Virus record (IMG/VR): IMGVR_UViG_3300017917_002560
Coordinates: 74,096 to 138,095 of that record
Direction: 5' to 3' (one strand)
Source of the DNA: a virus
Taxonomy: Duplodnaviria; Heunggongvirae; Uroviricota; Caudoviricetes
DNA length: 64,000 bases
In this document: positions 7,978 through 39,961 of the stretch, in pieces
How the letters are laid out: every line of letters starts with the position of its first letter
Numbering within the stretch: the first letter of the stretch is position 1
Position numbers and translations under genes: made by a program
The notes under the pieces: model-generated
The model's database searches: none
What the model saw: the letters and a program-made list of their open reading frames with translations, nothing else
What the model was told of the DNA's origin: nothing

Positions 7978-7980
7978 CCA

Positions 7981-8000
7981 AAAGGGCCACTAGGCCCTTT
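7981..8000 (+). terminator. Hairpin aaagggcc-acta-ggcccttt after structural gene
   Basis: 8-bp perfect stem, 4-nt loop immediately after stop at 7977; weak T-tract follows. Confidence 0.45.
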
Positions 8001-8032
8001 ACCTTTACTGCGTTTTCACGTATAATCAAAAG

Positions 8033-8341
8033 ATGAATACCGACGATCTAGTTAACCACGCCCGTGCCCGTTTTGATCATGCATCTGCTCGACGGGTACT
8101 CAAAGAAAAATACCAAGCCAAAATGTTGTTTGCCTATCAAGGCGGAATGTGGCGTGCTGGCCCAGAACTGCTGACATTGTTACAGTCCATACCAGTAGAA
8201 GATGATGTTATACTGTTGGATTTGTACGAAACTCCGGTACAGATCAATCCCTTGGAACTGCAACACTTGGCATTTGACCGCTGGCAAGAGCAAATGACAG
8301 CTTGGATGCTGGAATACAACGAGCTCAATAAAAAACGATGA
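8033..8341 (+). CDS. Hypothetical protein (102 aa)
   Basis: ORF; stop overlaps next start (ATGA). Confidence 0.45.
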   Translation: MNTDDLVNHARARFDHASARRVLKEKYQAKMLFAYQGGMWRAGPELLTLLQSIPVEDDVILLDLYETPVQINPLELQHLAFDRWQEQMTAWMLEYNELNKKR

Positions 8342-9141
8342 CCACTGGCGCACTTATTTTTGCCTTTAACAACGAGCAAACTGATTATGTTCGCATGGCT
8401 GCATGGAGCGCAGACAATATTCATCGGCATCTTGGTATTCCGGTAGCAGTGGTCACAGATGATCCCACCAATCCAAGGCTGAAAGATATTGATCAAATCA
8501 TTTACTCAGTCCCGGCCTCTGGCGGCACTAGATACTTTGATGATTATCAGTCCACAGTTACATGGAACAATGCCAGTAGAGTAAATGCTTATGACTTGTC
8601 CCCTTGGGATAGAACACTGGTGTTAGATGCCGACTATGTTGTAGCCAGTGACACATTAAAAACTTGTCTAAGCATACCACAAGATTTTCTTTGTTATAAA
8701 GATGCATATGATATTACGCTGAATTCAGATTTTGGTAGATTAAACACTTTTGGGGCACACAGTATGCCCATGTGGTGGGCCACAGTAATGATATTCAACC
8801 GCACACCACAAACAAAATATATCTTTGACAGCATGCAGATGATTCGAAACAACTGGCAACACTACAGAGATCTATACGGTATCCAAAAGAAAACTTATAG
8901 AAACGATTTTGCTCTGAGCATTTCATTGGGCATTGTGAGTGGTCACACTTGGCGCATTGACAGCCTGCCCGGCATGCTTGGTAGCGCAATGCCAGACCAT
9001 GAATTGACGTTGTTGGATCAAGATCATTACATGATTCAATTCCGTGACCGTGAAAGTATATTACGGCAAATGAGTTGGGCTGGCTTGGACTTTCATGCCA
9101 TGGGCAAAAGTCACTTGGAGAAAATAATTGCGTCCTATTGA
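8338..9141 (+). CDS. Putative nucleotide-sugar glycosyltransferase (GT-A-like, DxD motif LDADYV)
   Basis: N-terminal GALIFAFNN...YVRMAAWSADNIHRH...AVVTDD resembles GT8-like Rossmann start; DAD motif; paralogue of next gene. Confidence 0.45.
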   Translation: MTTGALIFAFNNEQTDYVRMAAWSADNIHRHLGIPVAVVTDDPTNPRLKDIDQIIYSVPASGGTRYFDDYQSTVTWNNASRVNAYDLSPWDRTLVLDADYVVASDTLKTCLSIPQDFLCYKDAYDITLNSDFGRLNTFGAHSMPMWWATVMIFNRTPQTKYIFDSMQMIRNNWQHYRDLYGIQKKTYRNDFALSISLGIVSGHTWRIDSLPGMLGSAMPDHELTLLDQDHYMIQFRDRESILRQMSWAGLDFHAMGKSHLEKIIASY

Positions 9142-9880
9142 AGAACAAGGATATTTGATCATAGGGTCAGGCGACTATGTACGCAATGCTGTGATGCTGG
9201 CGCAAAGCCTACGAAAGTTTCATCCTGACGCAAGAATTTGTTTGCTAACTGATCAAGAATTCACTGATCCTGTGTTTGATCATGTGCGGTTGTTAGATAA
9301 CCCCAACACAGAAAATCCCTGGGTCAATGACTGGCAGGTGGTTCGCAAAACACCGTTTAGAGAAACTATTAAACTAGAAGCTGATATGTTAATCGCCAGT
9401 CCTGTTGATCACTGGTGGACTATGTTTAGACATCGAGATGTTGTTGTCAGCACTGGTTGTAGAAACTGGCGCGGCGAAGTTAGCACAGCAAGAAACTATC
9501 GACGTGTGTTTGACGAGAATGGGTTACCGGATGTTTACAATGCTGTAACATACTGGCGACTGAGTCAAACCGCACGGGATTTCTTTTTCTGGGTACACAC
9601 TATTTTTGATAATTGGAGTGATTATAAAAAGCTAATTAAATTTCCTGAAGAGACGCCTAGCACAGACTTGGTGTACGCCATGGCCGCAGTGATTGTGGGA
9701 CCGCATTTGGTTACATTACCGTTTGTAGACTACCCTCAAATTGTACACATGAAACGACATCATGCAAGTACTCAAGACGAAGATTGGACTCATGAGTTAG
9801 TTTGGGAACACGACCCTTTGCGTATCAATACTGTAGCGCAGTGGGGTGCCTTTCATTACTACAAAAAGGATTGGGAATGA
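9128..9880 (+). CDS. Putative glycosyltransferase, paralogue of 8338..9141
   Basis: Shared N-terminal pattern (IIGSGDYVRNAVMLAQSLRKFHPDARICLLTDQ vs FAFNNEQTDYVRMAAWSADNIHRHLGIPVAVVTDD). Confidence 0.45.
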   Translation: MRPIEEQGYLIIGSGDYVRNAVMLAQSLRKFHPDARICLLTDQEFTDPVFDHVRLLDNPNTENPWVNDWQVVRKTPFRETIKLEADMLIASPVDHWWTMFRHRDVVVSTGCRNWRGEVSTARNYRRVFDENGLPDVYNAVTYWRLSQTARDFFFWVHTIFDNWSDYKKLIKFPEETPSTDLVYAMAAVIVGPHLVTLPFVDYPQIVHMKRHHASTQDEDWTHELVWEHDPLRINTVAQWGAFHYYKKDWE

Positions 9881-10209
9881 CACCTGAAGAGCTAATTAGT
9901 TTATTACAAGACATGCCAGAGCCAGAGCCAGTTTTTTATAGACTGTATCATGACAACAATGGCAATCCATTGTTTTACAGTATGGCAGATGTACCTGGCA
10001 CATACGTTGAAATTGACCGAGATACCTATGCCAAAAATAGTATGCGAGTCAAAGTAATCAATGGACAGTTATTAGAAATTACTTGGAAAACAGTTGACAA
10101 ATTAGTACCCAGTGACACCGGCACTAATTGTGACACCCGTGATGTGTCGGTGGTAGTTAGCTATGAGTCCAATTCAAAATGGAGCAAAAAAAGTTATGTA
10201 TTCAATTGA
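9877..10209 (+). CDS. Hypothetical protein
   Basis: ORF; ATGA overlap with upstream stop at 9878-9880 suggests start at 9877 rather than 9802. Confidence 0.4.
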   Translation: MTPEELISLLQDMPEPEPVFYRLYHDNNGNPLFYSMADVPGTYVEIDRDTYAKNSMRVKVINGQLLEITWKTVDKLVPSDTGTNCDTRDVSVVVSYESNSKWSKKSYVFN

Positions 10210-11119
10210 CGTTGCAGATTTAGACTGCATCTACCTTAGTTACGACGAACCACAAAAAGAAGAGTTTTGGGTTAAAATTAAGAACATGGTTCCTTGGGCC
10301 AAGCGTGTGGACGGAGTCAAAGGATCGGACGCCGCACACAAGGCCGCTGCCGAAGCCAGCGACACTGAGCGTTTTATTCTTATTGACGGTGATAATATAC
10401 CCAACCCAACGTTTTTCAACGTAACATTAAACATGCCAACTGAAGAATACCAACGTGCAGTGTTTCGTTGGCGTGCTAGAAATCACATCAATGGGTTAAT
10501 GTACGGTAACGGTGGATTGAGTTCATGGACAAAAGAATTTGTTATGAACATGAAAACTCACGAAAACACAGACGGGCGCACTGAAACAGAAGTAGAATTT
10601 TGCTTTGATCCACTGTACTGGCCCATGTACGATTGTTATTCTACTACCTATCCCAATGGATCGCCTTTCCAGGCCTGGCGTGCTGGATTCCGTGAAGGTG
10701 TTAAAATGTGTTTGCAACGTGGTCGTAAGCCCACTGTTGAAGAATTTAAAAATCAAGTGTTACGCAATCTTGACAACTTGACTATTTGGCACAATATTGG
10801 ATCAGATGTTGAACACGGAGAGTGGGCTATTGCTGGTGCAAGACAAGGCACATACATGACTATGCTGACTAATTGGGACCATCGTGAAGTACAAGACTTC
10901 GATAAACTTGCAGAATTGTGGAAAACAGTGGAAAACAGCAACCCAAGGTTGTTGAGTAATCAATTAGGTCCTGAGCTAGGTGGCCAGCTTGATTTGCCAA
11001 TGGCCATCTTAGAAGCAGAGCAAAGTGCATTTTTTAAATACCACTATCGTTCAAACTGGCACAACCAAGGTGCCATGGTTCGTGAAATTGATGTAATACG
11101 CAAACAAGAAGGTTGGTGA
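10163..11119 (+). CDS. Hypothetical protein with SYDEP(E/Q)xExxW domain shared with C-terminus of 27670..30687
   Basis: IYLSYDEPQKEEFWVKIKNM...VDGVKGSDAAHKAAAEAS aligns with VIFISYDEPEAEQNWEILKQR...VHGVAGMELALEAAADAS of the repeat protein. Confidence 0.5.
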   Translation: MSPIQNGAKKVMYSIDVADLDCIYLSYDEPQKEEFWVKIKNMVPWAKRVDGVKGSDAAHKAAAEASDTERFILIDGDNIPNPTFFNVTLNMPTEEYQRAVFRWRARNHINGLMYGNGGLSSWTKEFVMNMKTHENTDGRTETEVEFCFDPLYWPMYDCYSTTYPNGSPFQAWRAGFREGVKMCLQRGRKPTVEEFKNQVLRNLDNLTIWHNIGSDVEHGEWAIAGARQGTYMTMLTNWDHREVQDFDKLAELWKTVENSNPRLLSNQLGPELGGQLDLPMAILEAEQSAFFKYHYRSNWHNQGAMVREIDVIRKQEGW

Positions 11120-11120
11120 C

Positions 11121-11735
11121 ATGATTGACTATGCTAGACCATGGCACGTGTTAGACATTGATACCACTAATGCGTTGAATCCGCAGTTTGATCCATACAA
11201 GCTACGTGCTGAATCAACTCAAGCTGACGCACCGGTGAGTTTGTGGAAAATTCACGGCAACGAAGTGTACAGCGTATTCAACAAAGATTGGTTGGAACAA
11301 CTAGAAGCACGTGGTATTTCAATGTCATCGGCGATGCTGTTCTATAGAGATGCATACCATGTGCATCCAGTTATCCACATAGATGTATTCAAGGACGGCA
11401 CACCGTGCATATATGCATTTAACTGGGTAATATCACCAGTTGACAACAGTCCCATGGTTTGGTATGATATTGAAATTGGCACCGGCGAAGTAACTGAAAA
11501 CGTAGCCAGCACCAAATATCAATATTGGAGCATGGAAGAGTACCAGCACACTGAAGTTGCAAGAAAAATTATTGGCAACGAGTTGACCATGGTCAAGATA
11601 GGAATGCCGCATACTATTATTGTCAACGAGCATCCACGTTGGTTGATGAGTATTAGATGTACATTCAATGAGAATATCAAAGACTGGAACAGTGCAGTGG
11701 ACTACTATTCACATCTTTTTAAAAGAGTTGACTAA
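11121..11735 (+). CDS. Hypothetical protein (204 aa)
   Basis: ORF, tightly packed operon. Confidence 0.45.
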   Translation: MIDYARPWHVLDIDTTNALNPQFDPYKLRAESTQADAPVSLWKIHGNEVYSVFNKDWLEQLEARGISMSSAMLFYRDAYHVHPVIHIDVFKDGTPCIYAFNWVISPVDNSPMVWYDIEIGTGEVTENVASTKYQYWSMEEYQHTEVARKIIGNELTMVKIGMPHTIIVNEHPRWLMSIRCTFNENIKDWNSAVDYYSHLFKRVD

Positions 11736-12661
11736 TGTTTAGGATAGGCGGAACCAGCGATCGATTCTGGAACAAAACTGAGTTTGTTAAATTTCTAGTG
11801 GATAATCAACACAAAGAAATCAACATCACAGTTGACCCCGAAGCAATTTGCCTGCGGTCGTTAGGTGTGTACGACCTGCTGGATATGTTTGCGTTTGAAT
11901 CAGTTACAGTGCATACATGGAATCCTTTGGAGGCTCACCCCAACTACTGTGTAAAGCTGAACGGTCCAAACTTTTGGTTTGATAGAACAGCCAATATTGA
12001 TCCAATGTTGCATCAGTGGGATTTGTCACATGTTTTTTTATGCATGTATCATCGACCCACTGCTGGCCGCCTTGGCATTGCCAGTTATGCCTCACAGTAT
12101 AATACCTTGATGCACTTTTCTAGCGATCACAACCCTGACGAGTTGGTTCAATACGAGTTAGATAAACTTTTACAATACGATGTTGCTAGTGTGGCACGTG
12201 CTGGAGAGTTTTTGCAGAACTTGCCAATACTGCAAAGCTCACGAGACACGCTAACTAAATTCAATGGATATGATTATCGTGATCCGTTGACTGCATTGTA
12301 CCGTAAATGTTTTGTTGACTTAGTAGTTGAGTCGCACACAACTGGGCAAACATTTTTTCCTACAGAAAAAACCATTAGGCCCATACTGCTTAAAAAGCCG
12401 TTTATTGTGTTTGGCTCTGTCAGCTACTTGGATTACTTGCATCAAATGGGATTCCGTACATTCAGTGACTTCTGGGATGAGGATTATGATGGTTACGAAA
12501 AGGGCGATCGTCTACGACGCATCTATAGTCTAATAGACAGCATCGCCAAAATGCCAATCAACAAGCTTGAAACAATGTATTATGACATGCAGTATTCACT
12601 GGATCACAACTATAATTTGTTGATGAACAAAACTTTTAATAGAACAATAACACCAATATGA
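11735..12661 (+). CDS. GT10 (alpha-1,3-fucosyltransferase)-like glycosyltransferase-fold protein, paralogue 1 of 5
   Basis: Motif FFPTEKTIRPILLKKPFIVFGS...FWDEDYD matches FucT signature (ENSxxxxYxTEKxw...VPVVLG); shared by 14015, 19380, 25409, 26580. Confidence 0.55.
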   Translation: MFRIGGTSDRFWNKTEFVKFLVDNQHKEINITVDPEAICLRSLGVYDLLDMFAFESVTVHTWNPLEAHPNYCVKLNGPNFWFDRTANIDPMLHQWDLSHVFLCMYHRPTAGRLGIASYASQYNTLMHFSSDHNPDELVQYELDKLLQYDVASVARAGEFLQNLPILQSSRDTLTKFNGYDYRDPLTALYRKCFVDLVVESHTTGQTFFPTEKTIRPILLKKPFIVFGSVSYLDYLHQMGFRTFSDFWDEDYDGYEKGDRLRRIYSLIDSIAKMPINKLETMYYDMQYSLDHNYNLLMNKTFNRTITPI

Positions 12662-14058
12662 CCAAAGGCGATCAAAGTACTTTTATGAGTTCTGCTGAGC
12701 AGATGAAATCTGCTCTAGGGCCAGCCATGTGTTTGGCCAAGTGGAAACAGGTGAGCTTACATTTGCCCACTGGGCTTAACAATAGTTGTTATCATCCCCC
12801 GTTGCATGAAATTGATGCCAGCTTGTTGGCCAGCAATCCCAGCACATTGCATAACACACCGTACAAAAAACAACAGCGTAAAATCATGTTGCGTCAAGAG
12901 CGCCCACAAGAATGTGGATACTGCTGGGCCATGGAGGACAACAACAAACTCAGTGACCGTCACTATCGATCAGGTGAACCCTGGGCAGCCAAAGACTTTG
13001 ATAGCATTGTAAACTCAACTGGAGATGAAGATGTCTTACCTAGTTACGTTGAAGTTAATTTTAATCACGCTTGTAATCTTAAATGTAGTTACTGTAGTCC
13101 TCAATTTAGTTCAAGTTGGCAACAAGAAATGGATCACTTTGGCGCTTACCCTACTAGCACTAAACACAATGATCCTAGCCACTTCGTGGGTCGTAATAGA
13201 CCAATCCCAGTGCGCGAGCACAATCCCTATGTAGAAGCATTTTGGCAGTGGTGGCCCACACTGTATCCAGAACTAGAACATTTCCGTATGACCGGTGGCG
13301 AACCACTCATGGACAAGAATACATATCGTGTGTTTGATTATGTGCTGGAGAATCCTAGCAAAAAATTGCACCTCAATGTTACAAGTAACTTCAGCGTAGA
13401 TGAAAACCTGTGGCGCAAGTACAAGGACTATGTCAAGCGATTATGTGACACCGACGACGTAAAGCTAGAACATTTTATGCAGTATGTGAGCCTTGACGGT
13501 TGGGGTACACAGGCAGAATACATGCGACATGGGTTGGACTTTAATTTGTTATGGGATCGGGTCAATCAGTTCTTGGAAGAAATACCATACCGCAACAGCT
13601 TGACATTTATTGTCACAATGAACAACCTTTCAGTTACCAGCTTAGAGCATTTGTTTGCTGGTATCTTAGGACTGCGTAAAACATACAGTAAGACATATCA
13701 ACGTGTTTGGTTTGATACTCCGGTGTTGCGACAGCCGCATTGGCAGAGTTTGCAAATACTGCCAGAAAGCTATGCAGAACGTTTAGAGTATCTGTGGGCA
13801 TGGATGGTGCGCCAAACCGAAACACCCGAGGATCCATTCCATGGATTCAAAGATTATGAGATTGCACGCCTGGATCGAGACATTGCTTGGATGCGTGATG
13901 GGCAAAAGCTAGACCCTGCACAGCTACAGTTAAGGAAAGCAGACTTCTATCGTTTCTTCAATGAGCATGATCGACGCAGAGGCACAGACTTTTTGAAAAC
14001 ATTTCCAGAAATGCGTGAATGGTGGAAGGAGTGTGAATACCATGCTCGGCAATTATAA
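12658..14058 (+). CDS. Radical SAM protein, paralogue 1 of 5 (CNLKCSYC)
   Basis: CxxxCxxC motif; conserved N-terminal C..HPP...NTPxKK...ECGYCW module shared with 15108; no C-terminal SPASM-like Cys clusters seen. Confidence 0.65.
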   Translation: MTKGDQSTFMSSAEQMKSALGPAMCLAKWKQVSLHLPTGLNNSCYHPPLHEIDASLLASNPSTLHNTPYKKQQRKIMLRQERPQECGYCWAMEDNNKLSDRHYRSGEPWAAKDFDSIVNSTGDEDVLPSYVEVNFNHACNLKCSYCSPQFSSSWQQEMDHFGAYPTSTKHNDPSHFVGRNRPIPVREHNPYVEAFWQWWPTLYPELEHFRMTGGEPLMDKNTYRVFDYVLENPSKKLHLNVTSNFSVDENLWRKYKDYVKRLCDTDDVKLEHFMQYVSLDGWGTQAEYMRHGLDFNLLWDRVNQFLEEIPYRNSLTFIVTMNNLSVTSLEHLFAGILGLRKTYSKTYQRVWFDTPVLRQPHWQSLQILPESYAERLEYLWAWMVRQTETPEDPFHGFKDYEIARLDRDIAWMRDGQKLDPAQLQLRKADFYRFFNEHDRRRGTDFLKTFPEMREWWKECEYHARQL

Positions 14059-22768: not shown

Positions 22769-22867
22769 TATGAAATGGATTCGCAATTTAATTGAGCGTA
22801 TTCGGTTAGAGATACGTTATCGTAAAAAGTTAAAAGAGCTACGCAAAAGAGATCCGTTCATTTACAA

Positions 22868-24364: not shown

Positions 24365-24367
24365 GAA

Positions 24368-24397
24368 AATGCCCCTTTAAGGGGCATTTTTTATAGG
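24368..24397. terminator. Bidirectional intrinsic terminator (aaaatgcccctt/aaggggcatttt)
   Basis: 12-bp perfect hairpin followed by TTTTTAT on + strand and preceded by T-run equivalent on - strand; sits between convergent genes. Confidence 0.7.
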
Positions 24398-27671: not shown

Positions 27672-30600
27672 GTTTGACGTTTTTTATTCAGGACCTAAAC
27701 CTAATTTGTTCGCACACGAGCAACAGGCCTCGGATATTGACCATGCTCAGAAGTTAAGCCGTACTAGGTATTTTTGGTGGATCACATACTTAGCGGATTT
27801 GCAGGACTGGGATTTTCTTTGGGAACCGGCGCCGTGGCAAGCTGAGTACATGCATGTTTGGCCCAGTGAAGTTGAAGGATACGCCGCAGTAAAACTGATT
27901 CCGCGCGACACAGTTGACCCACAGCCACACTATCACAACATAGTTGTAAAGTCTTTGCCTAGGCTCAACAACTATCGTACCCTGGTGCCTTGTGACTTTG
28001 ATTACTCATGGTTACCTAGTCCGTTTGATCCCCCGTTCATTTATGTGTTTGGTAACCAACACTGGCCAGCAGAACAACAGCCCACAGTAGAATATCATGC
28101 ACCGGGCGCAACGGAACGCAAATATCTAGAGTGGCCACAAGCAACTCTATTGCCCGACCGTACACATTGGAAAGTGTTGGAGCAGATCAACGAAGCACAC
28201 TGGGACTGGTCATGGAGGCCTGATCCGGGCGATCCACCTTACATCTATGTGTTTGGTAACCAGTGGCACCCAGCAGAATTCAAGGCCAGTGTAGAGTATC
28301 ATGTGCCCGGGGCAACAGAGCGTAAGTACATGGATCCACGCACTGAGAGATTGCCGTGTTATGATAATCGCTGGCGTGTTCACCAGTCTGTGGAAGAATT
28401 TGATTATTCGTGGGAGCCCGACCCATTTGACCCGCCTTACATTTACGTATTTGGTAACCAATGGTATTCTGCCGAAGTGGAAGCTACAATAGAGTATCAT
28501 GTTCCCGGTGCAACAGAGCGCAAGTATGTTCACGATATTATAGCTCGTGTACAGTCTAACACAACCAACTACTATCAACACTGTGCAGTGGAATCTTTTG
28601 ACTATTCTTGGCATCCAGATCCTGGCGAACCACCGTACATTTACGTATTTGGTAATCAGTGGTACCCAGCAGAGATCATGCCCACTGTGGAATATCGTGT
28701 ACCTGGCGCAACAGAAAAGAAGTACATGGATGCACCCCGAGCAACATTGCCACAGCGTCATGACAATCACTGGCACACTATAGAGGATTGCAACTGGGAT
28801 TACAGTTGGGTACCTGATCCGGGCGATCCACCTTACATCTATGTGTTTGGCAATCAGTGGTGGCCCGCAGAAAAATGGCCTACTGTAACATATACAGTGC
28901 CCGGCGCTACTGAACGCAAGTACATGAACAGTCCACAAGCTACATTACTGCCCAACAACGATCACTGGGTTAGCTTGATTGACCGTGGGTTTGAATTTGA
29001 TTATTCTTGGCAGCCTGATCCCGGAGATCCACCTTATCGCTATGTGTTTGGTAACCAGTGGCATTCGGCTGAAGTTATGCCTACATTGTCATGGACTCAC
29101 CCCAACGCAGACAGCAACACGCCCACAAAATACATAGACTGGCCACGTGCTACTCTATTGCCTGACGCTACAAACTGGACACTGCCTGCTGGAGTAACAC
29201 CTGACAGTGTGGACTTCAGTTGGGTACCTGACCCTGGTGAGCCGCCATACATCTATCAGTTTGCCACACAGCACCAAAAAACAGGCGGTCCGGTGTACAC
29301 AGTGCCCGGTGCTACAGAAACAAAGTACCTTGAGTCAGTGGAAATCAAGATTGAAGTAGAAACAGTGCCCATTGTGGAAATTGATCACTTGGATGGCAAT
29401 GCTGGCAACATAGCCAATGTTGTTAAACGTGTGAGATACTTTGACAACTACCGTGACACGCTGATTCGCATTGCCAAGAGCCTTGTGGGTCAACATGAGT
29501 TTGTTTGGATCTGTTCTAGCGTATGTGATTACACTGACTTTGATTTTACATGGCACCCAGAAAAATGGCAACAAACTATGTTGCATGTATTTGCCAGCAA
29601 TGAACAAAAGTTTGGTGATACATTTTACATGCATGTTCCTTCGTTTGCAGAACGTGCAGAAAAGAAAGCTCTACTGGAGTGGTACGCAGTAAACTATGTA
29701 CCACGCAAACGGGTACCGCGCAGACTCATGCCAGTGTTTGAACACACGCATGATACACATGTGGGCACAGTTAAGAGTACAGACTGGACTGGCCCACTAG
29801 CACTGTTTACTACCAATGGCGTGCCTGCAACTATTCCAGCTGTGCCACTGTGGCGTTCAGAAGTTAAAACCATTGTGCCATTAAGCTCGGGTGCCGGGGC
29901 AGTGGTTGTACCCAAGGTTGCTCGTGGAGATATCAAAACACAGTTATACGACTATCCTTACATTGACAAAACACAACAAAGCACACATCCACCGCAGTTA
30001 CAAGATGTAATATTCATCAGTTACGATGAACCCGAAGCTGAACAAAATTGGGAAATACTAAAGCAACGTTGCCCAAGAGCACAACGAGTGCATGGTGTAG
30101 CTGGCATGGAACTGGCATTGGAAGCAGCCGCCGACGCTAGTACCACGCCGTGGTATTTTGCTGTGTTTGCAAAAACAAGATTGCATGATAGTTTTGATTT
30201 TTCGTTTGTACCTGATTACATGCAACAGCCCAAGCACTACATTTTCAACTGTCGCAATGCCAGCAATGGATTAGAATACGGACACATGGGCATGGTATTG
30301 TATAACTGTGCTGGAATACGTAGTACCAACCGTGCTGGCAATTTTGGTCTTGATTATACCTTGAGCTTCCCACACGAAAGTATTCCGTTGTTGAGTTGCC
30401 ATGGTGAATTTGCTACCACACCATATCATGCATGGCGCACAGCATTTAGAGAGACTGCCAAGTTAGCGTACTTTGAAAGTGTAGACCCCACAGTTGATAA
30501 TCAGTACCGACTCAACGTTTGGTTAAATCGTGCAGACGGCAACAACTCTGAGTGGGTGTTACGTGGTGCGCAAGATGGCTATGACTTTTACACAGCCACA

Positions 30601-30687
30601 CAGGGCGAGCTTGACAAGCTCAAGCAGAGTTTTAGATGGGAATGGTTACGTTCTTACTTTGAAGAACGCTACGGCGATTTAAAGTAA
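27670..30687 (+). CDS. Repeat protein (1005 aa): eight ~80-aa tandem repeats (W.PDPGDPPYIYVFGNQW.PAE...YHVPGATERKYM) plus C-terminal SYDEP domain
   Basis: Repeats read directly from translation (residues ~100-560); C-terminal 300 aa paralogous to 10163..11119. Confidence 0.6.
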   Translation: MFDVFYSGPKPNLFAHEQQASDIDHAQKLSRTRYFWWITYLADLQDWDFLWEPAPWQAEYMHVWPSEVEGYAAVKLIPRDTVDPQPHYHNIVVKSLPRLNNYRTLVPCDFDYSWLPSPFDPPFIYVFGNQHWPAEQQPTVEYHAPGATERKYLEWPQATLLPDRTHWKVLEQINEAHWDWSWRPDPGDPPYIYVFGNQWHPAEFKASVEYHVPGATERKYMDPRTERLPCYDNRWRVHQSVEEFDYSWEPDPFDPPYIYVFGNQWYSAEVEATIEYHVPGATERKYVHDIIARVQSNTTNYYQHCAVESFDYSWHPDPGEPPYIYVFGNQWYPAEIMPTVEYRVPGATEKKYMDAPRATLPQRHDNHWHTIEDCNWDYSWVPDPGDPPYIYVFGNQWWPAEKWPTVTYTVPGATERKYMNSPQATLLPNNDHWVSLIDRGFEFDYSWQPDPGDPPYRYVFGNQWHSAEVMPTLSWTHPNADSNTPTKYIDWPRATLLPDATNWTLPAGVTPDSVDFSWVPDPGEPPYIYQFATQHQKTGGPVYTVPGATETKYLESVEIKIEVETVPIVEIDHLDGNAGNIANVVKRVRYFDNYRDTLIRIAKSLVGQHEFVWICSSVCDYTDFDFTWHPEKWQQTMLHVFASNEQKFGDTFYMHVPSFAERAEKKALLEWYAVNYVPRKRVPRRLMPVFEHTHDTHVGTVKSTDWTGPLALFTTNGVPATIPAVPLWRSEVKTIVPLSSGAGAVVVPKVARGDIKTQLYDYPYIDKTQQSTHPPQLQDVIFISYDEPEAEQNWEILKQRCPRAQRVHGVAGMELALEAAADASTTPWYFAVFAKTRLHDSFDFSFVPDYMQQPKHYIFNCRNASNGLEYGHMGMVLYNCAGIRSTNRAGNFGLDYTLSFPHESIPLLSCHGEFATTPYHAWRTAFRETAKLAYFESVDPTVDNQYRLNVWLNRADGNNSEWVLRGAQDGYDFYTATQGELDKLKQSFRWEWLRSYFEERYGDLK

Positions 30688-31560
30688 TTCTTTAACACGG
30701 TCAATTACACGGGCAACTGCCTTGGCTGACTCAAGTCCGGTTGCCGGTTGTTGTCTGGTTCGAACACAGTTGACCCAGTGTTGTAGTTCAGTTTCCAATG
30801 GCGTCAGTGAGTGAGTATATGTAATCACACGTGGGTTGGTGTCTGCTACAGCACGTCGATCTTGAATCTTGTTCCAGGTCACAGTCACAGTGTTTGCATC
30901 CTGGTCCCAGATAATTTGCCCGTCGGTGCCCATGATAATTGTCTGTCTAGTGCGTACAGGCCAGTGCCAGCTTACATCAATATCAAATGTTACTTCAGTA
31001 TTGCAAGCACCTGAAAACCAAACACGATCTGGTTGTGCATTGTTACTGTAATTCCAACCCTGTGCTTGTTGGATCAAAGGTTGATCGCCAACAATGGCCA
31101 GCACAATGCTGATGTCATGTGTAGCCAAGCTCAGCAAAGGATCTGTCTTGGTTTGATAAATCCCCCAGTTGAGTCTACGACTAGATATGTGTGTTAATTT
31201 ACCAATAGCACCGCTGTCAAGTATGGCTTTGATTTCGGCCAGTTGTGGGTGATGCACAAACAAGTGTCCCACCATAAGCAACTGCCCGGGCATGACGTAG
31301 CTACCAATGCCCAATACTTGATTGAATGTTTCAGCCATGGGCTTTTCAACATATACATCATGCCCACGACGCAACAGTTCACAAGTTTGCTCGTGATGTT
31401 GCCACAGTGGGGTTGCTAGCATCACGGGATCCATAGTATCGATATCTGCAATACTTTGTCCGTTGCGGATGTCAATGACTTGAGCAGTGACATCAAACTT
31501 TTTCAAACTGTCCAACAGTTTGCTACCCCAATAACCGGCACCAACTAGCCACATATTCAT
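30679..31560 (-). CDS. Gfo/Idh/MocA-family NAD(P)-dependent oxidoreductase
   Basis: N-terminal Rossmann MNMWLVGAGYWGSKLL; length and EKP motif (VYVEKPMA) typical. Confidence 0.6.
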   Translation of the reverse strand: MNMWLVGAGYWGSKLLDSLKKFDVTAQVIDIRNGQSIADIDTMDPVMLATPLWQHHEQTCELLRRGHDVYVEKPMAETFNQVLGIGSYVMPGQLLMVGHLFVHHPQLAEIKAILDSGAIGKLTHISSRRLNWGIYQTKTDPLLSLATHDISIVLAIVGDQPLIQQAQGWNYSNNAQPDRVWFSGACNTEVTFDIDVSWHWPVRTRQTIIMGTDGQIIWDQDANTVTVTWNKIQDRRAVADTNPRVITYTHSLTPLETELQHWVNCVRTRQQPATGLESAKAVARVIDRVKELL

Positions 31561-32648
31561 GCAAAGAACTCCTGTACAGATTTGATCACGTGTTCAACTT
31601 GCGCTGGTGTCATGCTGTACCAACAAGGTAAGCTTAGAATTTCATTGACAGTGCGCTCAGCAATGGGGCAAGGTGTGTACCAAGAACGATACGCAGGCTG
31701 AGTATGTGTGGTTGTTGCATAATGCACATTGGTACCAATACCGCAACTTTCTAAATGCTGTTTAAGAGCATCACGTTTGGGAGTCTGTATCACATACACA
31801 TAGTATCCGTGTCCAACACCAGGCTCGTGTTTTATGGTCTTGACCACACCACTCAAGGCTTGATCATACTGTTGACAAATTTGTGTCTTGCGTTCAATCC
31901 ATTCAGTTAGTCGCGGCAATTTGGCCAATACAATATTGGCCTGCATGTTGTCAATTCTGGCATTGTAACCTAGTTCATTAAATTCATATCTTGATGTACG
32001 TCCGTGATCTCTAAACACACGCACACGATCCATGTTGACTTGACTACCGGTAACACACCCGGCGTCACCCATGGCACCTAGATTTTTTACAGGGTTGAAA
32101 CTAAAGCAAGTATAATCAGCTTGGTGTCCTATACGTTGTCCTTGCCATGTTGTGCCTAAACTATGTGCCGCATCTTCAATCATTATTAGGTGATAGCGAT
32201 CACATATTTCTCTCAATCTTGATAAATCAGGGCATTGGCCATAAATGTCCACAAACAATACTGCTCGTGTCTTTATAGTGATCTTGGCCACAAGCTTTTC
32301 CAAATCAATTAAATGTGTGTCAGGGTTAATGTCCACAAACACTGGTGTGGCACCTACTATGGCAATGGCTTCAGTTGTGGCAACAAACGTATGCGGAGTA
32401 GTCAATACTTCGTCACCGTGTCCAATGCCTGCGGCTTTGAGGGAACAGATCAGTGCTGTGGTACCTGAACCAGTGCTGGCGCAGTCTTCAGCGCCAACAT
32501 ACTGAGCCATTTCTTTTTCAAATCGTGTGACGTCTAAGCCAGTGATAAAACTGCTGGATGCAATAGTGTCAGCAATAGCTTGATCAATCTCAGTTCGGCA
32601 ATCTACGTATTGTTGGTAGAGATTGGTAAAAGGAATATCAATTTTCAT
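31557..32648 (-). CDS. DegT/DnrJ/EryC1/StrS-family PLP-dependent sugar aminotransferase
   Basis: DAAHSLG...SFNPVKNLGAMGDAG lysine/PLP motif. Confidence 0.75.
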   Translation of the reverse strand: MKIDIPFTNLYQQYVDCRTEIDQAIADTIASSSFITGLDVTRFEKEMAQYVGAEDCASTGSGTTALICSLKAAGIGHGDEVLTTPHTFVATTEAIAIVGATPVFVDINPDTHLIDLEKLVAKITIKTRAVLFVDIYGQCPDLSRLREICDRYHLIMIEDAAHSLGTTWQGQRIGHQADYTCFSFNPVKNLGAMGDAGCVTGSQVNMDRVRVFRDHGRTSRYEFNELGYNARIDNMQANIVLAKLPRLTEWIERKTQICQQYDQALSGVVKTIKHEPGVGHGYYVYVIQTPKRDALKQHLESCGIGTNVHYATTTHTQPAYRSWYTPCPIAERTVNEILSLPCWYSMTPAQVEHVIKSVQEFFA

Positions 32649-33612
32649 TTATTTTATTTTGCCAATAGGTACTGTTACTGAGCCACTTGAAATATTCGCG
32701 GAATCCTTCTTCTACGTCAACTTGAGGATTGTATCCAAAGTCTCGTTGTGCGGCTTCAATATTAAGAGCTCCGCGGCTGGGGAAGTCTGCATCTTTGCCA
32801 CGTATTTCTACAGAGCCTTTGCCAACAATGTTAACGATCATATTGGCAGCCTCAAGCAAGCTCACTGAGTGGCTTTTGGTAATGTTGTATGTGTTATTTA
32901 CAGCAGTGTCACTGAGTGCAGCCGCAACAATGCCATTGGCTGCATCGTCAACATAGGTAAAGTCCAAGGTTTCGCTGGCACCGTTGACTTTTAGCGTACC
33001 CCCACGCATGGCACTGAGCATAAATTTAGCAACCACTCGGTCTTCCACGTCCAAGGGCCCGTAAACAGCACTGGGCCTAATAATAGTATAATCAAAACAC
33101 TCACGACGAGCATAGTCTTTAACAATATCTTCTCCTGATAATTTCATAATTCCATATTGCCCCTGTGGGCGACATACTGCATCTTCTCGCACTTGGTCAT
33201 CAAAGTCACCGTACACCATTGAGCTAGAAATATAAACAAACCGTTTGACTCTGGCGTTTTTGGCACTCTCGCAAAGATTAATCAAGCCTTCCATCATAAC
33301 CCTAGCACCATGGCCAGGGTTAGCATTGACAACTTTTTGTCTAGGAAAGCTGGCCATGTGTATAATGACGTCAGGTTCTTGACTGCGAATCAACCAATCA
33401 ATATCTTCTTGTTCAGTAATGTCAATTCTGTAAATTCTATCTGTAGCAATCTTCTTACGACGCTCATGCATCAAGTAATCTAACTCGTCTTGTGGAATAA
33501 TACCGTAGGTGGTTTGCGAGTCAGTGATAACAACTTCGTGGCCCAAGGTTTCTAATCTATCAACAACATTGTGTCCAATGAGTCCTAGGCCGCCTGTAAC
33601 TAAAATTTTCAT
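32638..33612 (-). CDS. NAD-dependent sugar epimerase/dehydratase (SDR family)
   Basis: VTGGLGLIGHNV Rossmann motif, YGIMK catalytic YxxxK. Confidence 0.75.
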   Translation of the reverse strand: MKILVTGGLGLIGHNVVDRLETLGHEVVITDSQTTYGIIPQDELDYLMHERRKKIATDRIYRIDITEQEDIDWLIRSQEPDVIIHMASFPRQKVVNANPGHGARVMMEGLINLCESAKNARVKRFVYISSSMVYGDFDDQVREDAVCRPQGQYGIMKLSGEDIVKDYARRECFDYTIIRPSAVYGPLDVEDRVVAKFMLSAMRGGTLKVNGASETLDFTYVDDAANGIVAAALSDTAVNNTYNITKSHSVSLLEAANMIVNIVGKGSVEIRGKDADFPSRGALNIEAAQRDFGYNPQVDVEEGFREYFKWLSNSTYWQNKINEN

Positions 33613-34199: not shown

Positions 34200-34218
34200 A
34201 TTGATTAATCTTTTGCAA
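34190..34218 (-). promoter_or_regulatory. Possible sigma70-like promoter (TTGCAA-17-TATACT)
   Basis: Read on minus strand; weaker match than other early promoters; overlaps thyX stop. Confidence 0.3.
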
Positions 34219-37626: not shown

Positions 37627-37636
37627 ATATTTTCCT

Positions 37637-39935: not shown

Positions 39936-39961
39936 GTTGTGTCCTTTGTTACTATACCATT

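Follow-up and report, generated by a model that had tools for sequence, protein, structure and literature searches.

A block of about 25 kb (positions 8338-33612 of the window, the 64,000-nucleotide stretch of DNA analyzed here) carries genes for the predicted synthesis and decoration of an unusual glycan directly behind tail and baseplate genes, as judged from sequence, domain and profile searches. We tentatively propose that this block may be a soluble phage glycan assembly and tailoring line within a tail/baseplate array, most likely decorating the virion. The original prediction of a phage-borne region rich in sugar and group-transfer chemistry, lying beside co-oriented virion structural genes, held in outline: all ORFs that it named are present where it placed them, radical SAM (rSAM), glycosyltransferase (GT)-like, carbamoyl- and amidinotransferase and SDR/DegT/Gfo families could be assigned, and Pfam confirmed the carbamoyltransferase, SDR, DegT and Gfo/Idh/MocA families. 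The DNA belongs to a jumbo phage, since the window holds 39 tRNA genes, related contigs reach 364 kb, and the protein at 4565-5170 corresponds, by size and position rather than by alignment, to ORF356 of Ralstonia phage RsoM2USA, a virion protein confirmed by mass spectrometry (PMC8504454). The genomes of the clade carrying the block are roughly 250-365 kb (Table 1).

Table 1. Features of the block, its upstream neighbors and one distant accessory gene (window positions).
Position	Strand	Assignment	Basis
14-4393	+	Large virion structural protein	PHROG virion structural protein families, best 8.8e-18
4565-5170	+	Conserved virion/baseplate protein of Rak2/Atu_ph07/CBB-like jumbo phages	phrog_11259, 9e-70
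5200-6999	+	Structural protein, conserved N- and C-termini	phrog_14394 virion structural protein, 1.2e-11
7012-7977	+	Conserved protein, 321 aa; opens clade-specific syntenic core	66 loci, median 68% identity
8033-8341	+	Small conserved protein, 102 aa	69 loci
8338-9141	+	Candidate GT-A glycosyltransferase	GT8-like motif LVLDADYVV ... FHAMGK
9128-9880	+	Distant paralog of 8338-9141; KLEADM replaces DxD, HMK invariant	phrog_1903, function unknown
9877-10209	+	Small conserved protein, ~111 aa from ATG 9877	Conserved from MTPEEL onward, 12 loci
10163-11119	+	GT-A-like (nucleotide-diphospho-sugar transferase fold) protein, D-G-D motif nearly invariant	Structure model
11121-11735	+	204-aa protein, insertion slot 1	Only 2 loci
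11735-12661	+	GT-B-like paralog, insertion slot 1	Paralog alignment
12658-14058	+	N-terminal-twitch radical SAM enzyme 1	NF033640, 1.3e-93, 314 bits
14015-15157	+	Core GT-B-fold glycosyltransferase-like protein	Structure model
15108-16478	+	N-terminal-twitch radical SAM enzyme 2	NF033640, 3.3e-89
16475-18172	+	N-terminal-twitch radical SAM enzyme 3	NF033640, 7.5e-122, residues 167-563
18169-19380	+	N-terminal-twitch radical SAM enzyme 4	NF033640, 3e-101
19380-20387	+	GT-B-like paralog, insertion slot 2	Paralog alignment
20368-21687	+	N-terminal-twitch radical SAM enzyme 5	NF033640, 4e-86
21617-22768	+	Orphan core protein, 383 aa	Constant position, flanked by rSAM 5 and carbamoyltransferase
22868-24364	+	NodU/CmcH-family carbamoyltransferase	Carbam_trans_C 6.5e-47, Carbam_trans_N 4e-35
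24391-25416	-	Amidinotransferase (AGAT/StrB1 family)	PDB matches; phrog_25854; 83-89% orthologs in contigs L085, L087, L088
25409-26596	-	GT-B-like paralog, accessory arm	Paralog alignment; 57-63% orthologs in L085, L087, L088
26580-27671	-	GT-B-like paralog, accessory arm	Paralog alignment; 49-73% orthologs in L085-L088
27670-30687	+	1005-aa protein: seven ~66-aa repeats, then C-terminal GT-A-like domain copy	Repeats, alignment
30679-31560	-	Gfo/Idh/MocA oxidoreductase, probably nucleotide-sugar 3-dehydrogenase	Pfam, NCBIfam
31557-32648	-	DegT-family PLP aminotransferase, nearest sugar C3-aminotransferases	Pfam, 1.7e-104
32638-33612	-	Extended SDR, NAD-dependent sugar epimerase/dehydratase	Pfam Epimerase, 2.8e-44
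44571-45248	-	NeuD/PglB/VioB-family sugar N-acetyltransferase	Hexapep 7.8e-12; TIGR03570 2.6e-25, below cutoff

The order of the three upstream structural genes is conserved in phage Atu_ph07, where the gene after the 4565-5170 ortholog matches both ends of 5200-6999; here the glycan block comes directly after the trio. The first of them is a weak homolog of the giant Atu_ph07 'T4-like phage structural protein' (E 3e-13; 22.6% across 283 aa); its ORF opens close to the window start and may be incomplete. For 4565-5170, tblastn gave matches in 93 phage records (43-55% identity), some of them annotated as structural or baseplate proteins. The 20 genes from this first ORF through the carbamoyltransferase are co-directional and overlap or lie within 55 nt of each other, with two exceptions (171 and 99 nt). 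From gene order only, 'late' expression of the tail/baseplate array may be expected; promoter and terminator scans stayed at chance level, and the analysis pointed to neither an acceptor protein nor a glycosylation motif.

Comparison of gene neighborhoods modified the original view of the block as an island. Genes 7012-24364 form a rigid syntenic core in ~70 uncultured jumbo-phage contigs (55-85% identity), whereas the arm at 24391-33612 is accessory, occurring in at least four contigs, and the genes in defined insertion slots also vary. Slot 1, between 10163-11119 and the first rSAM gene, is occupied in 48 of 71 loci; slot 2, between rSAM 4 and 5, holds an insert in half of the loci (28/56), with 26 inserted ORFs being GT-B-like. 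The inserts are mostly divergent GT-B paralogs, together with SDRs and extra rSAMs, and such slot-wise swapping, which affects GT-B paralogs as well as the DegT/GFO cassette, looks like glycan diversification. Synteny also shifts the left border from 8338 to ~7012-8033, while the right border at 33612, with ThyX adjoining, appears reasonable. In all 66 loci, the 321-aa gene that opens the core is preceded by the structural gene and followed by the 102-aa gene; it has no Pfam, PHROG or NCBIfam match. The 102-aa protein is conserved evenly from end to end and so does not resemble a RiPP precursor.

All five rSAM proteins matched NCBIfam NF033640 ('twitch domain-containing radical SAM protein'; E-values from 4e-86 to 7.5e-122, bit scores 290-407, cutoff 170), and all retain CxxxCxxC, GGEP and four N-terminal Cys. 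Five full-length matches to one uncharacterized rSAM subfamily within 9 kb are far beyond chance. Enzyme 3 has an additional N-terminal domain of ~165 aa, and its SPASM domain (3.1e-12) lies N-terminal to Radical_SAM; in enzyme 4 these domains occupy residues 9-78 and 119-277, respectively. Orthologs of enzymes 1 and 5 were found in 75 and 63 loci (median identities 75 and 71%). Peptides are the commoner substrate of SPASM/twitch enzymes, which counts against sugar tailoring by these proteins, and our search for known reactions found one for none of the N-terminal-twitch enzymes. A glycan link is supported by the closest solved rSAMs, viperin (2.5e-7), BlsE (4.5e-3) and MoaA (0.02), whose substrates are nucleotides or nucleoside sugars, and by the context of twitch-like rSAM matches on bacterial plasmids, glycan loci in all three cases inspected. 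On an Azospirillum plasmid, the rSAM lies one gene from a carbamoyltransferase 30% identical to that of the block, in a locus with a nucleotide-sugar dehydrogenase, three SDRs, FkbM methyltransferases and a GT; a twitch rSAM so named by PGAP sits amid GT2, GT4 and GT39 genes and an ABC exporter on a Methylomagnum plasmid; and in Methylobacterium the plasmid-borne rSAM is flanked by GT87 and GT2 genes.

The ORFs starting at 11735, 14015, 19380, 25409 and 26580 are true paralogs by alignment, sharing a C-terminal module (TEKT-KP...GF-TF...DESYD), and the one modeled, 14015-15157, is predicted to adopt a GT-B fold. For the ORFs initially called 'GT10-like', paralogy and this fold thus stand, but GT10 membership is unsupported, since 43 diverse members gave no Glyco_transf_10 or other GT match in Pfam and the family profile found nothing among PDB sequences; no CAZy-type family could be linked significantly to these proteins by sequence. 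The two predicted DxD glycosyltransferases (8338 and 9128) are likewise paralogs, as the HMM of each family matches orthologs of the other (1e-8 and 3.6e-7). They yielded no significant match in Pfam or PDB and no significant CAZy-type family link, and 'putative' is therefore the correct label. In the first, which has no Pfam match, D99, H253 and K257 show complete or almost complete conservation in a 27-sequence alignment, and the sole family lead is glycogenin-1 (E 1.5, over the DxD region); a marginal hydropathy peak occurs in the second. The protein at 10163-11119 (probable start 10196) is probably GT-A-like, according to a moderate structure model (pLDDT 69) of a fold that also includes nucleotidyltransferases. 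Residues 779-970 of the 1005-aa protein, following repeats of the form FDYSWxPDPxDPPYIYVFGNQW...VPGATERKY, are 29.5% identical to it, and this copy is the only member of the family alignment without the DGD motif; orthologs occur in four contigs (53-73% identity, one match shorter). The original prediction had included neither this GT-A-like gene, nor the degenerate copy of it that is joined to the seven repeats, nor the orphan 383-aa core gene. The last lies within 16 nt of rSAM 5 in 55 loci, belongs to a family of 330 representative clusters with invariant H142, G150, N174, H178, G231, G242, K243 and G319, and showed no link in Pfam or PDB. Among the smaller genes, the ORF of 9877-10209 opens at 9802 (ATG 9877 overlaps the upstream gene's stop), and 11121-11735 has no family match.

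The carbamoyltransferase was recognized as predicted, through both of its Pfam domains. The amidinotransferase has no Pfam or NCBIfam match and was assigned through PDB (AGAT 4e-11, StrB1 3.3e-10, HsvA 1e-8, SxtG 2.5e-8); its GGISC-C-T Cys and GH-GDAVF His align with the AGAT segments that contain the catalytic Cys407 and His303, in agreement with the catalytic Cys first proposed. For the SDR, DegT and oxidoreductase trio the families were correct, but the proposed 4-amino-4,6-dideoxy route looks less likely than transamination after oxidation at C3, the nearest DegT and Gfo relatives being C3-type. The sequences favor a 3-amino (2,3-diamino) sugar as the product, because the C3-aminotransferases QdtB (5e-70) and WbpE (3e-63) are among the best solved relatives of the DegT enzyme (with 7b0d, 3.3e-83, and 2oga, 1.8e-65), and the best NCBIfam family of the oxidoreductase (GFO_IDH_MocA_C3, GFO_IDH_MocA and GFO_IDH_MocA_C in Pfam; Gfo/Idh/MocA 7.6e-08) is UDP-N-acetylglucosamine 3-dehydrogenase (8.4e-21, under the curated cutoff). 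The SDR carries TGGLGLIG and YGIMK, with dTDP-glucose 4,6-dehydratase and GalE as best NCBIfam families, both under cutoff. The NeuD-family acetyltransferase, 11 kb away, may serve the amino-sugar route as an accessory; it and the SAH hydrolase at 46972 were both correctly recognized.

Taken together, we hypothesize that the accessory arm would provide a modified nucleotide amino sugar, with the SDR acting as epimerase or dehydratase, the Gfo/Idh/MocA enzyme oxidizing C3 of a UDP-HexNAc-type sugar, and DegT transamination giving the 3-amino (2,3-diamino) sugar; the NeuD-like enzyme might then N-acetylate its new amine, or the amidinotransferase might turn that amine into a guanidino group. Up to three GT-A-like proteins (8338, 9128 and 10163) and the five GT-B-fold enzymes could then build an oligosaccharide on a cytoplasmic acceptor, plausibly the phage's own tail, baseplate or fibre proteins. 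The five rSAM enzymes may tailor sugar residues through H-atom abstraction, with ketone formation by oxidation, epimerization, deoxygenation or C-C/C-methyl chemistry as possible outcomes, and the NodU-type enzyme would finally O-carbamoylate a hydroxyl. The fixed scaffold would thereby specify a clade-wide glycan core, and the slot genes would diversify its outer part.

Alternatively, the glycan might be made for the host envelope rather than for the virion, and this is the main rival. The bacterial homologs reside in cell-surface polysaccharide loci, which would equally fit an envelope target reached via a host lipid carrier and exporters. However, the core is conserved across the ~70 contigs rather than varying with host, convincing transmembrane segments are absent from the 27 ORFs examined, of which only 9128-9880 shows a marginal hydropathy peak, and domain searches and hydropathy of the block's ORFs failed to reveal a flippase, a polymerase, an exporter or an initiating phosphoglycosyl transferase. 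Together with the co-directional array, the structural trio upstream and the gene interleaving in RsoM2USA, these features support a link to the virion, which we therefore prefer as the likely target.

The cultured phage RsoM2USA carries a reduced block inside its tail/baseplate module, in which orthologs (ORFs 354-348 and the SDR ORF358) are interleaved with tail sheath ORF359 and virion proteins ORF356 and ORF361, both verified by mass spectrometry in a virion proteomics study of ten gel bands only (PMC8504454). ORF353 (33% identity) and ORF352 are the orthologs of the two DxD ORFs, ORF354 and, weakly, ORF351 can be aligned with 8033-8341 and 9877-10209, and ORF349 (35%), the ortholog of rSAM 1, neighbors the GT-A-like gene. 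The orthologs of rSAM 2 (ORF202, 50%) and of the carbamoyltransferase (ORF199, 44.5%) lie three genes apart. Beyond phages, the GT-B model of 14015-15157 also matches Mimivirus L138, a member of the fibril-glycosylation cluster.

The genes considered here form a fixed scaffold with diversifying slots, and not a free-floating island; the original prediction described an island of sugar and modification genes. With the GT-B-like glycosyltransferase gene at 14015-15157 as query, 78 IMG/VR loci were collected on contigs of up to 364 kb, and tblastn of all window genes against them recovered one gene order in about 70 loci: ORFs 4565-5170, 5200-6999, 7012-7977 and 8033-8341, two ORFs with DxD motifs, ORF 9877 and a GT-A-like gene, followed by the first of five radical SAM genes (rSAM 1), a GT-B gene, rSAMs 2, 3, 4 and 5, an ORF of 383 aa and a carbamoyltransferase gene. 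Core orthologs are 55–85% identical across the loci, and the gaps between neighbors are near zero except at four hot spots. The slot between the GT-A-like gene and rSAM 1 holds an insert of up to 5 kb in 48 of 71 loci, and inserts are also present between rSAM 4 and rSAM 5 (28 of 56 loci), between the 383-aa ORF and the carbamoyltransferase gene (17 of 48) and between rSAM 3 and rSAM 4 (13 of 61). GT-B paralogs are the most frequent of the classifiable slot ORFs, followed by SDRs, extra rSAMs and amidinotransferase-like genes, while a comparable number of slot ORFs are unclassified; the GT-B family in these loci falls into 42 clusters at 50% identity.

Positions of the main features in the window
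Feature	Position	Strand	Remark
Structural or baseplate protein gene	4565-5170	+	
ORF 5200	5200-6999	+	
ORF 7012	7012-7977	+	Start of the core (7012-24364)
ORF 8033	8033-8341	+	
Two DxD ORFs	8338-9141, 9128-9880	+	
ORF 9877	9877-10209	+	
GT-A-like gene	10163-11119	+	
rSAMs 1 to 5	12658-14058, 15108-16478, 16475-18172, 18169-19380, 20368-21687	+	
GT-B paralogs	11735-12661, 14015-15157, 19380-20387	+	Common C-terminal module
GT-B paralogs	25409-26596, 26580-27671	-	Common C-terminal module
383-aa ORF	21617-22768	+	
Carbamoyltransferase gene	22868-24364	+	
Three genes	24391-27671	-	Directly after the + strand array
Amidinotransferase gene	24391-25416	-	
1005-aa gene	27670-30687	+	
Antisense ORF of 242 aa	28210-28938	-	Inside the 1005-aa gene
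Three genes	30679-33612	-	
ThyX	34205-34897		
SPFH/Band 7 gene	36829-37626	-	
DUF2201 metallopeptidase-VWA gene	38652-39935	-	
MoxR-type AAA ATPase gene	43117-44205	-	
NeuD-like acetyltransferase gene	44571-45248		
Calcineurin-like metallophosphoesterase gene	45245-45850	-	
Dual-specificity/tyrosine phosphatase-like gene	46433-46921	-	
SAH hydrolase gene	46972-48375		
Carboxymuconolactone-decarboxylase/AhpD-like gene	48610-49125	-	
Peroxiredoxin AhpC/TSA gene	50069-50602	-	
tRNA array	51617-63223	-	
Radical_SAM ORF	51692-52576	-	
ORF with B12-binding match	52495-53280	-	
RNase H-like gene	58240-58767		
GIY-YIG endonuclease gene	63201-63809		

Beyond this core, an accessory right-hand arm (24391-33612) carries, in order, the amidinotransferase gene, two GT-B genes, the repeat protein gene, a Gfo/Idh/MocA oxidoreductase, a DegT aminotransferase and an SDR, with ThyX behind them. 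The arm recurs in four contigs, two of which have another DegT paralog (27% identity) and no oxidoreductase, a pattern suggestive of a cassette swap. Neither the amidinotransferase nor the amination trio belongs to the core; both are accessory. Coding is dense across the block of core and arm, and the twenty + strand ORFs between 14 and 24364 overlap or lie no more than 55 nt apart, except for gaps of 171 nt (4393/4565) and 99 nt (22768/22868). The ATG of the 1005-aa repeat protein overlaps that of the divergent GT-B gene by 2 nt (27670-27671), leaving no intergenic promoter space, so that an inner start or promoters within coding sequence may be used; promoter and terminator scans returned signal at the level of shuffled sequence.

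The array is rooted in a jumbo-phage structural region. ORF 4565-5170 encodes a structural or baseplate protein that is conserved among Rak2, Atu_ph07 and CBB-like jumbo phages. In Atu_ph07 a giant structural protein and the orthologs of 4565-5170 and 5200-6999 stand in the same order as in the window, but the module that follows 5200-6999 in the window is missing from Atu_ph07. When GenBank phages were searched by megablast, neither the block nor the remainder of the window gave anything except a tRNA match. Metagenomic homologs number at least 8000 for one module gene and about 3000 for another. The module is part of a structural gene array in a widespread uncultured jumbo-phage clade. Its products appear soluble, as the Kyte-Doolittle maximum over 19 residues stays below 1.6 in every ORF between 7012 and 33612, with the exception of 9128-9880 at a marginal 1.81. 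No initiating phosphoglycosyl transferase, flippase/polymerase or ABC exporter was detected in any family scan of the block ORFs, and the block does not make up a complete Wzx/Wzy- or ABC-transporter-dependent pathway for surface polysaccharide.

The five rSAMs are full-length members of NCBIfam NF033640, the "twitch domain-containing radical SAM protein" (290–407 bits, E 4e-86 to 7.5e-122, against a curated cutoff of 170 bits), each covering nearly all 398 positions of the model. They are divergent, with 19–29% identity to the reference copy at 18169-19380, although the CxxxCxxC motif (C123, C127, C130) and G191-G192-E193-P194 are invariant in all five paralogs; among the full-length homologs in the loci, CxxxCxxC is kept in 346 of 346 and GGEP in 338. 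The Pfam SPASM model matches N-terminal to Radical_SAM (residues 9-78, 14-89 and 171-235), and four N-terminal cysteines (C9, C27, C74 and C77), putative ligands of an auxiliary cluster, are invariant across the five. The solved enzymes nearest to the five-rSAM profile are viperin (2.5e-7), the cytosylglucuronate decarboxylase BlsE (4.5e-3) and MoaA (0.02), whereas BtrN reaches an E-value of only 0.4; similarity to maturases of the PapB, XyeB, ScmE and StsB type is weak in NCBIfam (E 1e-3 to 1e-2). Our literature search found no paper assigning a reaction to this subfamily, and no functional study of jumbo-phage glycosylation.

The GT-B family is represented in the block by five paralogs, which have the module TEKT-KP...PF-V...GF-TF...DESYD in common. 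The predicted structure of the one modeled paralog (14015-15157) shows two Rossmann-like domains with an inter-domain cleft, as expected for a GT-B fold. These ORFs had been described as GT10-like; while the modeled fold agrees with GT-B, membership in GT10 does not follow, since 43 diverse members gave no match to PF00852 (Glyco_transf_10) or to any Pfam glycosyltransferase family at E<=1. The family profile retrieved nothing from PDB sequences at E<=10, and tblastn against phages, as well as Pfam, PHROG and NCBIfam searches, gave no match. A Glu-Lys pair is conserved in the family together with an Arg upstream of it, which presumably resembles the GT10 donor site, whose C-terminal motif in H. 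pylori FucT comprises an Arg followed by an essential Glu-Lys pair. In a viral structure library, the GT-B model matched many uncharacterized "uncultured Caudovirales" proteins and Mimivirus L138 (E 4e-6), and the description of one target mentions the N-terminal domain of a UDP-glucose/GDP-mannose dehydrogenase.

A further candidate, the GT-A-like gene, had been left unremarked in the original prediction. Its predicted structure is of moderate confidence (pLDDT 69; 76–92 over the first 90 residues) and matches PBCV-1 A64R and Mimivirus R655 and R699, and a D-G-D motif is nearly invariant in the family. The 1005-aa ORF ends in a 29.5%-identical copy of this protein that has lost the D-G-D motif and is preceded by seven repeats of about 66 aa; TRF detected no repeat in this ORF at the DNA level. 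The 242-aa antisense ORF inside the repeat region, whose translation is itself repetitive, is almost certainly a by-product of the repeats and not a gene. The two DxD ORFs, proposed earlier as glycosyltransferases, are distant paralogs with LDAD/LEAD and H..(G)K motifs (D99 invariant and H253..K257 conserved in both groups, with EAD in 9128-9880), a pattern that we take to fit GT8. A significant family match is missing, as the sole signal is a glycogenin profile at E 1.5 and 27 members of the family gave no Pfam match, and the two ORFs remain candidates. The 383-aa core protein, represented by 330 clusters with an invariant set of His, Asn, His and Lys, has no Pfam or PDB link; PDB profile searches of the 383-aa, GT-A-like and DxD families returned nothing significant, and in homolog searches close phage relatives saturated the results and no named proteins appeared.

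Among the transfer and sugar-nucleotide enzymes, the carbamoyltransferase scores 122 bits for Carbam_trans_N and 160 bits for Carbam_trans_C (gathering cutoffs 24 and 27), yet it falls short of the NodU equivalog model, reaching 135 bits where 1000 are required. Although no Pfam or NCBIfam family matched the amidinotransferase at E<0.01, a PDB search aligned it with AGAT, StrB1, HsvA and SxtG (E 4e-11 to 2.5e-8) over three conserved stretches, in which GGISC lies opposite GGFHC and GHGDAVF opposite MHIDATF, segments that we take to contain Cys407 and His303 of AGAT. This alignment of a C-terminal Cys and a His segment bears out the earlier suggestion that the GGxxCCTxD segment fits the catalytic-Cys pattern. 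Pfam upheld the SDR, DegT and Gfo/Idh/MocA assignments, and family searches confirmed the acetyltransferase of the NeuD/PglB/VioB family and the SAH hydrolase. DegT matches PF01041 over its full length (1.7e-104), carries the PLP-lysine motif SFNPVK, and has 7b0d, QdtB, 2oga and WbpE (3e-63) as its best solved relatives, without reaching any equivalog cutoff; its best match is deposited as a "glutamine-scyllo-inositol transaminase", and glutamine:2-deoxy-scyllo-inosose aminotransferases are also among the matches. The enzyme classes of the predicted amino-sugar trio stand, and of the two products proposed for it, a 4-amino-4,6-dideoxy or a diamino sugar, the former appears less likely. Because QdtB and WbpE are C3-aminotransferases and the best family of the oxidoreductase is UDP-GlcNAc 3-dehydrogenase (8.4e-21, below cutoff), the sequence relationships favor C3 oxidation and transamination toward a 2,3-diamino sugar over a 4-amino-4,6-dideoxy sugar.

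Other genes in the window lie outside the block. The tRNA array comprises 39 genes in 11.6 kb, all on one strand, and is a nearly complete set, with three Met-CAT, duplicated Asp, Glu, Asn, Lys and Thr-TGT, and a 92-nt tRNA-Ile(TAT); the small ORFs amid it include the RNase H-like and GIY-YIG endonuclease genes. At 51692-53280, an ORF with a weak B12-binding match and a Radical_SAM ORF overlap by 82 nt and could represent a single B12-dependent radical SAM gene that is frameshifted or split; it would be a sixth rSAM of the window, and one of a different class. The peroxiredoxin and AhpD-like genes next to the SAH hydrolase gene could, speculatively, shield oxygen-sensitive Fe-S rSAMs during infection. 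A MoxR/VWA-like set (SPFH/Band 7, DUF2201 metallopeptidase-VWA and MoxR-type ATPase) occupies 36829-44205, and the metallophosphoesterase and phosphatase-like genes lie between the acetyltransferase and SAH hydrolase genes.

Part of the module is present in a cultured phage. Ralstonia jumbo phage RsoM2USA (343.8 kb) has a reduced version, in which ORFs 354-348 keep the gene order from 8033-8341 through both DxD ORFs, the small ORF and the GT-A-like gene to rSAM 1 (35% identity), with a second GT-A-like gene at the end, while about 90 kb away an ortholog of rSAM 2 (50% identity) is three genes from a carbamoyltransferase gene (44.5% identity). An SDR (ORF358) lies between the tail sheath gene (ORF359) and ORF356. 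All module genes are "hypothetical" in the RsoM2USA record. The paper on this phage (PMC8504454) annotates ORF359 as tail sheath and ORFs 362-364 as baseplate, and its MS data establish ORF356 and ORF361 as virion proteins.

A second, independent phage array of the same subfamily is found in the 255-kb Vibrio phage K566 (OZ196521.1, 161548-168284), where four twitch-like radical SAM genes are clustered and the hypothetical-protein ORFs interleaved with them are unrelated to the GT-B family of the window. An obligate pairing of rSAM and GT-B was therefore rejected; distant GT-B homologs were also found at five loci without rSAMs (L074-L078). A genome scan retrieved two contigs of a "Haliscomenobacter sp." MAG (NZ_JBBAKG010000001.1, 183 kb; NZ_JBBAKG010000003.1, 148 kb), each with all of the five-rSAM block at about 71% identity. 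Both are probably jumbo-phage genomes that ended up in a bacterial MAG through binning and thus provide no bacterial context; they may hint at a Saprospiraceae host, or may merely reflect contamination of a public genome record.

Bacterial contexts were sought by tblastn of the rSAMs against annotated plasmids, which gave few matches, and in this small sample all three of the contexts inspected are glycan loci. On the Azospirillum brasilense plasmid NZ_CP059454, a twitch-like rSAM (profile match at 1e-24) lies one gene away from a carbamoyltransferase that has 30% identity with that of the phage, in a locus that also contains a nucleotide-sugar dehydrogenase, three SDRs, FkbM methyltransferases and a glycosyltransferase. 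In Methylomagnum ishizawai pRS11DPr1, the neighbors of a twitch rSAM named by PGAP are GT2, GT4 and GT39 genes as well as an ABC exporter and an AsnB-type amidotransferase, and in Methylobacterium aquaticum an rSAM is flanked by GT87 and GT2 genes, with an aminotransferase adjoining. These three contexts are the only independent tie found here between the rSAM subfamily and glycans.

Given the enzyme set, the slot-wise diversification of glycosyltransferases and the bacterial contexts, a glycan assembly and tailoring pathway is the most economical reading of the block's chemistry, and we consider it probable. Its product may be destined for the phage virion, a destination that we favor tentatively because the genes are embedded in and overlap the structural array in two distant phage lineages, because the 27 ORFs have no convincing membrane segment or export function, and because the core is clade-wide rather than host-specific. 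The rSAMs would then abstract a hydrogen atom from sugars, leading to oxidation, epimerization, deoxygenation or C-C chemistry, as we infer from the enzyme class alone. Carried further, the N-terminal-twitch rSAMs would be a new class of glycan-tailoring radical enzymes, the five of which, with the GT-B enzymes, the His-rich orphan and the carbamoyl- and amidinotransferases, build a radical-tailored carbamoylated or guanidinylated glycan on tail or baseplate proteins; in this full form the proposal is rather doubtful. The main rival to the virion as destination, though still on the unlikely side, is remodeling of the host envelope, in which the same enzymes would make or modify a lipid-linked oligosaccharide (O-antigen, capsule or S-layer glycan) in the infected cell. 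They would rely on the host for the initiating transferase, the lipid carrier, the flippase or ABC exporter and the ligase, and superinfection would be blocked or progeny kept from adsorbing to debris. Such is the usual reading of glycosyltransferase genes, and of the rSAM cassettes beside them, near the tail-fiber genes of pelagimyophages and cyanomyophages (PMC7029224). The bacterial relatives of the twitch rSAM and carbamoyltransferase are in cell-surface polysaccharide loci, one with an ABC exporter, C3-amination is typical of LPS/O-antigen sugars, with WbpE among the best DegT matches, and GT-B enzymes are commonly peripheral and act on undecaprenyl-linked acceptors. However, no membrane component of any kind was recognized in the 27 ORFs, and a pathway of eight glycosyltransferases wholly reliant on host initiation and export is demanding. 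Moreover, envelope modification should track host serotypes, whereas the core is fixed in a wide clade and partly common to a Ralstonia phage, and its genes lie within and overlap the structural array, not an early region.

The remaining explanations appear considerably less probable. A diffusible aminoglycoside-like or nucleoside-like pseudo-oligosaccharide, directed against the host or competitors with no macromolecule being glycosylated, is improbable, although the enzyme set mirrors the logic of aminoglycoside biosynthesis, which employs the twitch rSAM BtrN, the inosamine amidinotransferase StrB1, the O-carbamoyltransferase TobZ, the DegT enzymes BtrS and StsC, Idh-type dehydrogenases and GT-B enzymes. 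StrB1 and inosose aminotransferases are indeed among the matches, together with the deposited scyllo-inositol transaminase, and a similar trio of cyanophage DegT, amidinotransferase and rSAM genes has been labeled "antibiotic synthesis genes" (PMC12801897). Yet the scanned ORFs include no recognizable cyclitol synthase, resistance gene, exporter or kinase/phosphatase pair, eight glycosyltransferase-like genes that diversify slot by slot suit a polymer or protein glycan better than a defined metabolite, the amidinotransferase and amination trio are not core, and metabolite genes have no rationale in a structural module. Peptide chemistry is more improbable still: the five rSAMs would be maturases that introduce cross-links, epimerization or formylglycine into virion proteins or a RiPP-like product, with the glycosyltransferases secondary. 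Most SPASM/twitch rSAMs modify peptides or proteins, the rSAM genes adjoin structural proteins, and the maturase similarities point the same way, but at E-values far behind that of viperin; the bacterial relatives lie amid glycosyltransferases and sugar enzymes rather than precursor peptides, and ORFs 8033-8341 and 9877-10209 are uniformly conserved, unlike a leader with a variable core. A RiPP cluster was set aside, as the small ORFs (at least 60 aa examined) are conserved over their full length and have RsoM2USA counterparts, and no RRE-type family was found in the scans. DNA hypermodification, in which glycosyltransferases act on hydroxymethylated bases and the rSAM, carbamoyl- and amidinotransferases decorate the sugar or base for restriction evasion, is the least probable. 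Phage thymidine and cytosine pathways can include rSAMs and carbamoylation, and ThyX adjoins the block. ThyX, however, yields ordinary dTMP, and dozens of unrelated GT-B enzymes score at least as well against the GT-B model as those of T4. The scanned ORFs yielded neither a pyrimidine hydroxymethylase nor a DNA-binding module or a DpdA-like gene, the genes are in the structural array rather than in a replication or nucleotide module, and the bacterial relatives are in polysaccharide loci.

Phage glycosyltransferase clusters beside tail genes, with rSAM cassettes nearby, and virus-encoded particle glycosylation in giant viruses are already known. What is new is the conserved five-fold array of an uncharacterized rSAM subfamily, together with a GT-B family that is unclassified and strongly diversified, the architecture of scaffold plus slots, the abundance of the module and its presence in a cultured phage. 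The fixed-order array of rSAM, glycosyltransferase and carbamoyltransferase genes, together with the bacterial glycan contexts, provides a testable hypothesis for the substrate class of NF033640, and because RsoM2USA, with its two rSAMs, GT-A-like genes and carbamoyltransferase, is cultured, the question is experimentally approachable. If virions are decorated, phage-encoded protein glycosylation would extend well beyond mycobacteriophages, with radical chemistry added, and there would be consequences for host recognition, particle stability and evasion of immunity or defense.

Two phage parallels come closest. One is the hypervariable "host recognition cluster" of pelagimyophages and cyanomyophages, in which glycosyltransferases and radical SAM cassettes lie beside tail-fiber genes (PMC7029224); the other is a set of DegT, amidinotransferase and rSAM genes in cyanophage S-SCSM2R (PMC12801897). 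The window resembles the former in having glycosyltransferases next to tail-fiber or structural genes, rSAM cassettes in the region and prominent candidate GT8-like enzymes, and the latter in combining aminotransferase, amidinotransferase and rSAM in a phage. In contrast to the marine myophages, its array is a conserved core of rigid order, with five N-terminal-twitch rSAM paralogs, an unclassified GT-B family, an orphan 383-aa protein and a carbamoyltransferase, and its lineage is a jumbo one related to Rak2 and Atu_ph07 rather than T4-like; both sets are known from genes alone. The Azospirillum and Methylomagnum loci likewise combine a twitch-like rSAM with a NodU-type carbamoyltransferase, SDRs, a nucleotide-sugar dehydrogenase and glycosyltransferases. 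By contrast with the phage, the bacterial loci have one to three rSAMs rather than a fixed five, include an ABC transporter, GT39, a UbiA-type prenyltransferase and methyltransferases, and have no counterpart of the phage GT-B family, the GT-A-like protein or the 383-aa protein.

For the amination trio, the counterparts are WbpB/WbpE/WbpD of Pseudomonas B-band O-antigen and GnnA/GnnB of lipid A, which also use a Gfo/Idh/MocA 3-dehydrogenase, a DegT 3-aminotransferase and a left-handed beta-helix N-acetyltransferase. Unlike in those pathways, the phage scores are all below equivalog cutoffs, the oxidoreductase is short (293 aa), and the window has no UDP-GlcNAc 6-dehydrogenase or 2-epimerase; the amidinotransferase, 5 kb from the trio, raises the prospect that the amine is guanidinylated instead. 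Aminoglycoside pathways bring together the same classes of twitch rSAM (there with a sugar-like alcohol as substrate), amidinotransferase, ATP-dependent O-carbamoyltransferase, DegT and GT-B, but the BtrN match is very weak and the auxiliary cluster of BtrN is C-terminal, no cyclitol synthase was recognized in the phage set, and its number of glycosyltransferases is far above any aminoglycoside's need.

The glycosylation clusters of Mimivirus and PBCV-1 decorate the viral particle itself. As in the phage, nucleotide-sugar modification (dehydratase, aminotransferase and acetyltransferase) and several glycosyltransferases are virus-encoded in the gene clusters for the Mimivirus fibril and the chlorovirus capsid glycan, although we know of no radical SAM enzyme, carbamoyltransferase or amidinotransferase in such giant-virus clusters. 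These are eukaryotic viruses, in which virion glycosylation has been demonstrated, whereas for the window phage it is inferred. If the reading of a radical-tailored glycan is true, the module would be a bacteriophage counterpart of the autonomous glycosylation of giant viruses, with a chemistry not yet seen in protein glycans.
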